From assembly GCF_057098645.1 (NCBI RefSeq), contig NZ_CM169472.1: a DNA stretch of 64,000 nucleotides; one strand, given 5' to 3'. Of the stretch, positions 3,093-3,616 are shown one piece after another. The notes under the pieces were generated by a model. It saw only the letters and a program-made list of their open reading frames with translations, ran no database searches and was not told the origin of the DNA. How positions within the stretch are numbered: position 1 is the first letter of the stretch; each line of letters begins with the position of its first letter. The translations under genes were made by a program, and so were the position numbers.

Positions 3093-3616
3093 GGTCTGCC
3101 TGATGTTTGTGGAATCGAGGGGCATAGTATACCTGAAGCAGGGTAGGGATGTTTTACGAAAGTTGTCGCGATGTTGACAAGAAGAGAATGGAAGAGAGGC
3201 CAGGACATCTTTTTAATAGAAATAGCAATGATATTATATTCACTGTAAATATTTTTAATTTTTATTTATAGATGCCGGTTATTATTTTTACTGATTTGGT
3301 TGAACTGCCAAAAATTGAATTGCTTAAAGTTCATTGTTTATTGATACATTATTTATTTGATTTGTTGTTTTGATATTTTCAGGATCTATGGTTCAAAATT
3401 AATGATTTCATTAACGTGTTGAAATACAGTGTTTTTGTCAGCCTATTCTTTGTGTGTATAGATGTTTTTATATATGTCCACAATCGGACTTAGGGGAAAG
3501 AATAATTGAACCATTCCTCTATAACGCCGCATAATCGTAAACGCGAAACATAAGATGTTTTCTATGCATTGATAATTGATGGATCAACTTATTACGTCCC
3601 TGAGGAGGGATGACAA

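Follow-up and report, generated by a model that had tools for sequence, protein, structure and literature searches.

The present analysis concerns the DNA that separates the divergent genes hemB and ehaB in a stretch of 64,000 nucleotides (hereafter, the window) of contig NZ_CM169472.1, from the NCBI RefSeq assembly GCF_057098645.1, the whole of which is 99.97% identical to Escherichia coli O145 strain RM9872. The gene order in the window runs tauBCD, hemB, the autotransporter gene ehaB, iprA (or yaiV), ampH, and sbmA. The autotransporter gene is known as yaiT in E. coli K-12, where it is split by IS3, and is annotated as ehaB, or simply as an autotransporter, in many other E. coli genomes. 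The spacer is a control region common to the two divergent genes, hemB and ehaB, and its long AT-rich core probably serves in the silencing of ehaB by the nucleoid protein H-NS. The features of the locus are as follows:

2118 to 3092, minus strand: coding sequence of hemB (porphobilinogen synthase), the left gene of the divergent pair, placed by the RefSeq annotation of the near-identical RM9872.
3093 to 3616, no strand: hemB–ehaB intergenic region, 524 bp, with a guanine-cytosine (GC) content of 0.332 and its hemB edge based on RefSeq.
3093 to 3175, minus strand: conserved block next to hemB, with a column conservation of 70–100% in 42 sequences.
3176 to 3472, no strand: AT-rich core, the proposed H-NS platform, with a GC of about 0.26–0.27 and 8–12.5 TpA steps per 100 bp (4.7 in the window).
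3272 to 3468, no strand: hypervariable segment of the core, with a mean pairwise difference of 27.9% among eight E. coli alleles.
3476 to 3489, plus strand: palindrome GTCCACAATCGGAC (family form GTCyG-N4-CGrAC), conserved across genera, a candidate site for a dimeric regulator.
3496 to 3535, plus strand: predicted ehaB promoter, from a consensus scan, with the A-rich AAAGAATAAT (3496–3505), TTGAAC (3506–3511), a gap of 18 bp, and CATAAT (3530–3535).
3543 to 3616, plus strand: predicted leader of ehaB, about 75 nt long and 90–100% conserved over its final 55 nt or so (3563–3616) across at least 15 genera.
3617 to 6505, plus strand: ehaB (intact yaiT), the gene of a 962-amino-acid type Va autotransporter adhesin (Pfam Autotransporter beta-domain, E = 1.6e-46).
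6593 to 7216, plus strand: iprA (yaiV), the gene of a CRP/FNR-fold regulator (Pfam HTH_46, with a weak match to cNMP_binding).

The spacer is taken as 3093–3616 because the annotated start of hemB lies at 3092 in the near-identical genome. An earlier note on this DNA had delimited the region as 3126–3616, of which the right edge stands, while the left edge does not, given that the longest in-frame open reading frame (ORF) has its ATG at 3126, upstream of the annotated start of hemB. The same note had described the spacer as unusually long and AT-rich, and both of these descriptions are borne out. Of the 42 intergenic regions in the window that reach 30 bp or more (median 126 bp), none is longer than this one (524 bp), and its GC is the third-lowest of the 42, which have a median of 0.444. 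Measured over 3126–3616, the GC is 0.318, in comparison with 0.502 for the window, a value that is equally low in only 0.9% of all segments of the same size (491 bp). A high AT content sustained over a few hundred base pairs, as expected of the targets of xenogeneic silencers, was thus found here, most markedly in the core (about 0.26). The two A/T strings quoted in the earlier note are located at 3252–3271 and 3349–3374, and the homopolymers of the spacer are of length five or fewer.

The arrangement is widespread. When the EhaB beta-domain was used to scan one genome of each species, 62 loci were recovered, and in 41 of these, from at least 15 genera, hemB is found divergently upstream of the autotransporter gene. 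These genera include Escherichia, Citrobacter, Enterobacter, Pseudocitrobacter, Kluyvera, Trabulsiella, Leclercia, Raoultella (R. terrigena), Pluralibacter, Superficieibacter, Yokenella, Lelliottia, Huaxiibacter, and Intestinirhabdus. The spacers of the 41 loci measure 371–617 bp (median 509), with a GC of 0.31–0.44 (median 0.34), next to a hemB of 0.54–0.62, and iprA follows the autotransporter gene directly in all 57 of the loci scored, including those that lack hemB at this position. In Salmonella, the locus of which was fetched separately, the positional orthologue is yaiU (seaB, STM0373), in the order hemB, a spacer of 512 bp, autotransporter, iprA, ampH, and sbmA, with the difference that the upstream neighbor of hemB is prpE, rather than the tauD found here. 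The Salmonella spacer is likewise laid out in three parts, with the palindrome GTCCGAATCCGGAC, TTGAAC-18-CATAAT, and a core GC of 0.18–0.28, and its leader is identical to that of E. coli over the final 55 nt or so, save for a 1-nt indel. The passenger domains of SeaB and EhaB, by contrast, are only 49.7% identical (bioRxiv 10.64898/2026.01.14.699485).

The conserved block next to hemB contains the ribosome-binding region, a −10-like TATACT (3131 to 3126, minus strand), and ACTTTCGTAAAACA (3163 to 3150, minus strand), and the arrangement ACTTTCGTAAAACA-N17–19-TAnAnT-about 27 nt-ATG is present in all of the genera examined. This block is a putative core promoter of hemB, with a predicted start at about 3119 (minus strand) and a leader of about 27 nt. 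The putative promoter has no recognizable −35 element, which suggests that it may be dependent on an activator. The HemB protein itself is 100% identical among the E. coli loci compared.

At the opposite end, the roughly 145 bp that adjoin ehaB (3473–3616) are nearly invariant, and comprise the palindrome, the predicted promoter, and the leader. The palindrome, GTCCACAATCGGAC, is the sole exact GTCC-N6-GGAC in the 64 kb, and its start precedes the −35 hexamer by exactly 30 bp in all of the genera examined, Salmonella included; the distance from the −35 hexamer to the ATG ranges from 90 to 129 bp across genera. The center of the palindrome is located about 59–60 bp upstream of the predicted start of ehaB transcription (about 3541–3543), a position that would be typical for the site of an activator. 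The TTGAAC and CATAAT hexamers are 90–100% conserved in the 42 sequences, and the 18-bp gap between them is constant in length and not in sequence, which has the appearance of the classic footprint of a real promoter. Conserved promoter elements are thus found in the spacer for both of the outward genes, as is the case in a divergent sigma-70 promoter region, with start sites that are predicted.

The leader of ehaB is also structured. It carries a GGA-containing motif, UUGAUGGAUCAA, at 3576–3587, and the conserved A(U/C)GGA lies 23 nt upstream of the GGA of the ribosome-binding site. A hairpin, CGUCCCU-GAGG-AGGGAUG (3595–3612), hides half of the ribosome-binding site (AGGAGG), and the leader fold, in which the AGGAGG and the AUG are both paired, has a predicted energy of −16.7 kcal/mol (z-score −2.3). 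RNAalifold retains the 7-bp hairpin, in which a few supportive changes are seen, from C-G to U-G (four sequences) or U-A (one sequence), and from G-U to A-U (four sequences), and gives no support to a hairpin-like structure at the upstream GGA motif. A permissive Rfam search of 1900–4000 returned a single match with E of 1 or less, a chance small nucleolar RNA inside ehaB, with 17.5 bits against a gathering value of 45. Two short reading frames in this area, an ATG-CAT-TGA mini-ORF and an upstream ORF of 21 codons from 3579, were rejected as coding sequences on comparative grounds, with no protein search made, the leader-ORF ATGs being lost in several genera.

Between these two conserved ends, the middle of the spacer is almost devoid of conserved columns in the 42 sequences, with only a weak block near 3232–3240. 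The variation is already extreme within the species. In an alignment of eight E. coli alleles picked over the whole range of identity, the mean pairwise difference is 0.4% at the coding end of hemB, about 7% at 3093–3271, 3.8% at 3469–3616, and 1.2% at the start of ehaB, with the value of 27.9% listed above confined to the hypervariable segment. When the central 197 bp of the core were searched against 5426 complete genomes, an identity to the window of at least 99% was found in 26 of the 5426, and one of 95–99% in none, followed by 90–95% in 118 genomes, 80–90% in 1172, and 60–80% in 3153, with about 958 returning no match, although the flanks of the core are present in nearly all of these genomes. 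The allele of the window is 87.5% identical to that of E. whittamii, 83% to that of a cryptic Escherichia clade, and about 72% to the K-12-type alleles, and has no match outside Escherichia among the genera searched. The ORFs of the spacer at 3149–3271, 3272–3373, and 3379–3483 (minus strand) were rejected as coding sequences on the same comparative grounds, likewise with no protein search, the central ones lying in hypervariable, indel-bearing sequence.

Oren et al. (in 2014) and Thorpe et al. (in 2017) have reportedly described the switching of regulatory-region alleles in the core genes of E. coli. The present spacer resembles such cases in its divergent alleles within a species, located between conserved flanking genes, and in the presence of alleles common to other Escherichia, and differs from them in that only the central roughly 200 bp have been swapped or have diverged. 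A rewiring of regulation by the alleles of the core is not obvious here, because the elements close to the promoters hardly vary on either side. The search for a phase-variable switch recovered no tandem repeats in the spacer, and only short, imperfect, AT-rich inverted repeats (79–90% complementary); no invertible element or slipped-strand repeat was seen in these repeat scans, and the homopolymers are short.

While the sequence of the core is not conserved between genera, its low GC is, with the lowest value over 200 bp ranging from 0.18 to 0.34. In Buttiauxella, Atlantibacter, and Franconibacter, the upstream neighbor is not hemB, and yet a tract of roughly 300 bp, with a GC of 0.16–0.33, precedes the promoter of the autotransporter gene. 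The AT-rich core appears to travel with the adhesin gene, because the tract persists where hemB is not adjacent, and the roughly 300 bp of the core would thus belong functionally to ehaB. From these comparisons, the low-GC, silencing-type composition is an old, maintained trait, and does not betray a recent acquisition. A constant length and composition, combined with a free sequence, directly upstream of the promoter of a surface protein that cultured cells do not express would be the expected signature of a silencing platform for a nucleoid protein.

The silencing of ehaB by H-NS through the AT-rich core is the best reading of this layout, with a probability of about 0.6, and is unproven in E. 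coli. In the mechanism proposed, about 80 bp beside hemB would carry the hemB promoter, and about 145 bp beside ehaB would form a dedicated module, with an operator near −60, the promoter TTGAAC-18-CATAAT, and a leader of 75 nt with a hairpinned ribosome-binding site. H-NS, with StpA or Hha, would nucleate on the core and spread over the adjoining ehaB promoter, and the adhesin gene would stay silent under laboratory conditions until the arrival of a counter-silencing signal. Gordon et al. are said to have found, in 2011, that H-NS prefers TpA steps over rigid A-tracts, and the core is rich in TpA.

The evidence of H-NS binding comes from the Salmonella orthologue. The yaiU (seaB) gene is referred to as a previously reported H-NS-repressed gene, and its promoter binds H-NS in gel shifts and in isothermal titration calorimetry, with dissociation constants of 0.29–0.46 µM across four promoters (PMC10657408). 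The promoter is also occupied by H-NS in chromatin immunoprecipitation (ChIP) followed by quantitative PCR, and K107A, an H-NS variant with tighter occupancy, reduces the expression of yaiU (PMC10657408). The occupancy and silencing of the E. coli spacer are inferred from this orthologue by composition and layout, rather than by sequence, because the cores of the two species cannot be aligned. The earlier note had taken the spacer to be typical of H-NS-silenced promoters, a view that is upheld indirectly by the binding and repression of the Salmonella orthologue, by the shared layout, and by the absence of a plus-strand start from the K-12 spacer.

The K-12 promoter region is intact. Coordinates in this strain were converted with an offset of 776 bp between U00096.2 and U00096.3, which we take to be correct. 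In the part of the K-12 Cappable-seq supplement considered here, which appears to cover the plus strand only, no plus-strand start site is listed between 388,394 and 389,570 (U00096.2), an interval that spans the spacer (PMC4782308). The first plus-strand starts downstream of hemB in this part of the supplement are weak and lie inside yaiT (389,570, 389,852, and 390,159, beginning about 95 nt into the gene), rather than at the conserved promoter, and are possibly spurious starts in AT-rich DNA. Further along the locus, yaiV and ampH are flagged as H-NS bound in K-12 in the tables of Higashi 2016 (PMC4720273), which do not list hemB or yaiT and provide no coordinates for the spacer region. The yaiU–yaiV spacer of K-12 is flagged for HNS in genomic SELEX, the systematic evolution of ligands by exponential enrichment (PMC3946193). 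The phenotypes of SeaB and EhaB have been seen on overexpression, and not in the parent strains (bioRxiv 10.64898/2026.01.14.699485).

A number of E. coli adhesin promoters are repressed by H-NS, including those of upaC, the ehaG/upaG family, and the cryptic chaperone-usher operons. The ehaB locus is similar to the upaC type, as this is generally understood, in combining a surface adhesin, weak expression in the laboratory, and a long AT-rich upstream region. The upaC-type adhesins are, however, understood to be mostly strain-variable accessory loci, whereas ehaB is syntenic across the family and, unlike them, is preceded by a deeply conserved module of operator, promoter, and leader.

Several points weigh against the silencing of ehaB by H-NS. 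No data on H-NS occupancy or on expression in hns mutants were obtained for the hemB–ehaB spacer of E. coli, and the literature search recovered no paper on yaiT with H-NS, and nothing on the regulation of ehaB with H-NS or hns. Between E. coli and Salmonella, the AT-rich cores cannot be aligned, and the high-affinity H-NS motif TCGATAAATT has three matches with two mismatches in the spacer and none with one or fewer, which is as expected of AT-rich DNA. This motif is not obligatory for binding. The predicted curvature is ordinary, and H-NS sites frequently, if not in every case, go together with curved DNA. The extreme variability of the core could be equally compatible with an absence of constraint, and the silence of K-12 could stem from the lack of an activator, with no repressor at work. 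The grade of about 0.6 reflects the lack of data on the E. coli spacer itself, together with the lack of a strong H-NS motif.

The main rival is the possibility that the core is an unconstrained spacer, with no role in itself, that has drifted to an AT-biased mutational equilibrium, with ehaB silent only for want of an activator in the laboratory. A pairwise difference of 28% within E. coli, and a core that cannot be aligned between genera, are what would be expected under such a drift, which would also account for a tract content at the level predicted from composition and for the absence of a strong H-NS motif from the spacer, in a window where noncoding DNA is generally AT-richer than coding DNA. 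The GC of the core, at 0.18–0.27 over the lowest 200 bp, is, however, well below that of the other spacers of the window, and about 300 bp have been retained in at least 15 genera, even though bacteria tend to delete useless DNA. The AT tract also accompanies the autotransporter gene into other genomic contexts, and the orthologous Salmonella promoter is bound and repressed by H-NS (PMC10657408), all of which makes simple drift rather improbable.

It is also conceivable, if distinctly improbable, that the core is the binding field of other regulators of ehaB or hemB (Fis, IHF, Lrp, a factor of the SoxS/MarA type, or a dedicated one), with H-NS playing only a secondary role. Regulators of this kind would be expected to leave site-specific footprints, and yet 3176–3472 contains only the weak block near 3232–3240, while the conserved sites are concentrated in the 145 bp beside ehaB, outside the AT-rich core. 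It is there that the conserved palindrome and the A-rich block are found, directly upstream of the −35 hexamer, and these sites, like the CRP/FNR-fold IprA that is always encoded next door, do point to additional regulators, as does a SoxS peak, with no recognizable motif, in the ChIP sequencing of the Salmonella hemB<>yaiU region (PMC10268841).

The earlier note had also attributed phased A and T tracts and curvature to this DNA, from which it might follow that helically phased tracts bend the DNA intrinsically and that control of the promoter comes from this very bend. Curved DNA is known to occur upstream of promoters, and the spacer does contain several T5 and A5 runs in AT-rich DNA, but neither attribute survived analysis. 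In comparison with dinucleotide-preserving shuffles, there are 12 A/T runs of at least four nucleotides (11.1 ± 2.2 in the shuffles) and seven of at least five (4.3 ± 1.6, with 9% of the shuffles reaching seven), while the power of the AA/TT periodicity in the 10–11.5 bp band is below the shuffle mean, and is exceeded by 86% of the shuffles. The tracts of the quoted strings are separated by only 4–7 bp, with the T5 runs 7 bp apart, which is not the helical repeat. The curvature prediction, by a wedge model with the Bolshoy/Trifonov angles, which distinguished controls with phasing (40) and without it (22), gave a mean of 11.1 degrees for the region and 10.7 for the window, with 37% of the equal-sized segments being more curved, and a local maximum of 25 degrees, against a 99th percentile of 27.6 in the window. 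The spacer DNA is simply AT-rich, with no tract enrichment, phasing, or predicted bend, and control by an intrinsic bend is, on these models, largely refuted.

The horizontal acquisition of the adhesin, also claimed in the earlier note, does not hold for the locus, which is syntenic in at least 15 genera and in Salmonella, and does hold for the coding allele of ehaB, which has been exchanged between genera. The segment 3565–6506 of the window is 91.8% identical to a metagenome-assembled genome of Pseudocitrobacter, in which hemB is 82.5% and iprA 67% identical, and it is this disparity between ehaB and hemB that indicates the exchange of ehaB alleles. The values suggest that the allele was replaced between genera, the break lying at about 3565, within the conserved leader. 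The passenger region, at 3697–4795, has no blastn match to the ehaB of O157 or SCU-484, and the EhaB protein is 71–77% identical to those of Citrobacter, E. albertii, and Salmonella, and 72–73% to those of the large E. coli clusters.

The hemB–autotransporter locus itself is old, rather than recently acquired, a conclusion also reached in the SeaB preprint (bioRxiv 10.64898/2026.01.14.699485). That a foreign island with the adhesin gene was inserted here recently, the AT-rich DNA being its scar or leading edge, can be dismissed as highly improbable, since, although the GC of ehaB (0.475) and iprA (0.396) is below the 0.50 of the window and the ehaB allele is nearer to Pseudocitrobacter than to most E. 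coli alleles, the gene order and spacer layout are shared by at least 15 genera and Salmonella, the locus showed neither direct nor inverted repeats at its flanks, nor any tandem repeats, the core of the spacer is of the Escherichia type, with no match in another genus, and the exchange is confined to the coding allele from about 3565, leaving the spacer out. The shortcut by which AT-rich DNA upstream of an adhesin gene is taken to signify curved DNA or a foreign origin is thereby corrected: it need not mean either.

Beyond the silencing of ehaB by H-NS, the conserved module at 3473–3616 invites a more tentative proposal. An AlphaFold model of IprA (predicted local distance difference test, 80) has Foldseek matches to CRP, NtcA, Vfr, and Clp, with E values of about 4e-8. 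A CRP/FNR operator would combine a palindrome of 6-bp central spacing, at a fixed class I distance, with a cognate CRP/FNR-fold protein; here, GTCC-N6-GGAC lies at a fixed offset of 30 bp from the −35 hexamer, and the neighboring gene encodes the CRP-fold IprA, the link between IprA and the palindrome being one of adjacency only, and iprA is a speculative candidate for a local regulator of ehaB. It is possible, though doubtful, that the module represents an undescribed, family-wide EhaB/SeaB circuit, in which a CRP/FNR-fold regulator, most simply IprA, would act at the palindrome to counteract the silencing by the core, with the leader as a translational gate. A site for FNR or Fur in TTGATAATTGATGGATCAA was considered and rejected, given that the N4 spacing is wrong for FNR (N2 or N9) and the match to Fur, judged against what we take to be its consensus, is poor.

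The gate may operate through CsrA, or through a temperature-dependent opening of the hairpin at the ribosome-binding site. The leaders of glgC and pgaA are repressed by CsrA, and the ehaB leader is similar to them in having at least two GGA motifs, one over the ribosome-binding site and the other about 23 nt upstream. In Salmonella, yaiU is flagged as a predicted CsrA target (PMC6347204 S1 and S2), and in a csrA mutant its RNA and ribosome footprints are both up by 0.9 log2 (about 1.9-fold), in mLPM only, with no alteration of translation efficiency (PMC6347204). In contrast with the CsrA-repressed leaders, yaiU is not a match in the crosslinking and immunoprecipitation sequencing of CsrA (flag 0; PMC6347204). 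These Salmonella data are a hint of mild repression of the orthologue by CsrA.

A few other features of the window can be recorded here. The ehaB–iprA spacer (6506–6592) contains a hairpin with a perfect 12-bp stem, AATGCCCGTCAA/TTGACGGGCATT, at 6549–6576, and a TTCACT-18-TTTAAT at 6511–6540, in agreement with the promoter that Shimada et al. 2014 list, flagged HNS, for yaiV. The window reaches its lowest GC (0.26–0.32) at about 53244–54806, in espY3, which encodes an effector of type III secretion and is inserted between pgpA and yajO, and this segment looks like real horizontally acquired, H-NS-type DNA. Another gene of low GC (0.36), at 38808–40278, is annotated as frameshifted in RM9872 and is broken in the window too, into ORFs of 213 and 125 amino acids, and a 2-bp indel separates the window from RM9872 in this area.

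The hemB–ehaB spacer is an ordinary kind of element, to which the hypervariable core and the deeply conserved module add modest interest. In Shiga-toxin-producing E. coli, EhaB is both an adhesin for laminin and collagen and a biofilm factor. It is reported to raise an immunoglobulin A response in cattle challenged with O157:H7 (Wells et al. 2009), and the Salmonella orthologue, SeaB, is under examination as a vaccine antigen (bioRxiv 10.64898/2026.01.14.699485). Knowing what keeps ehaB off matters, because the phenotypes of EhaB and SeaB appear only on overexpression, and the present analysis maps the predicted promoter, the candidate operator, and the leader, together with the 300 bp that would be relevant to the silencing of this gene.

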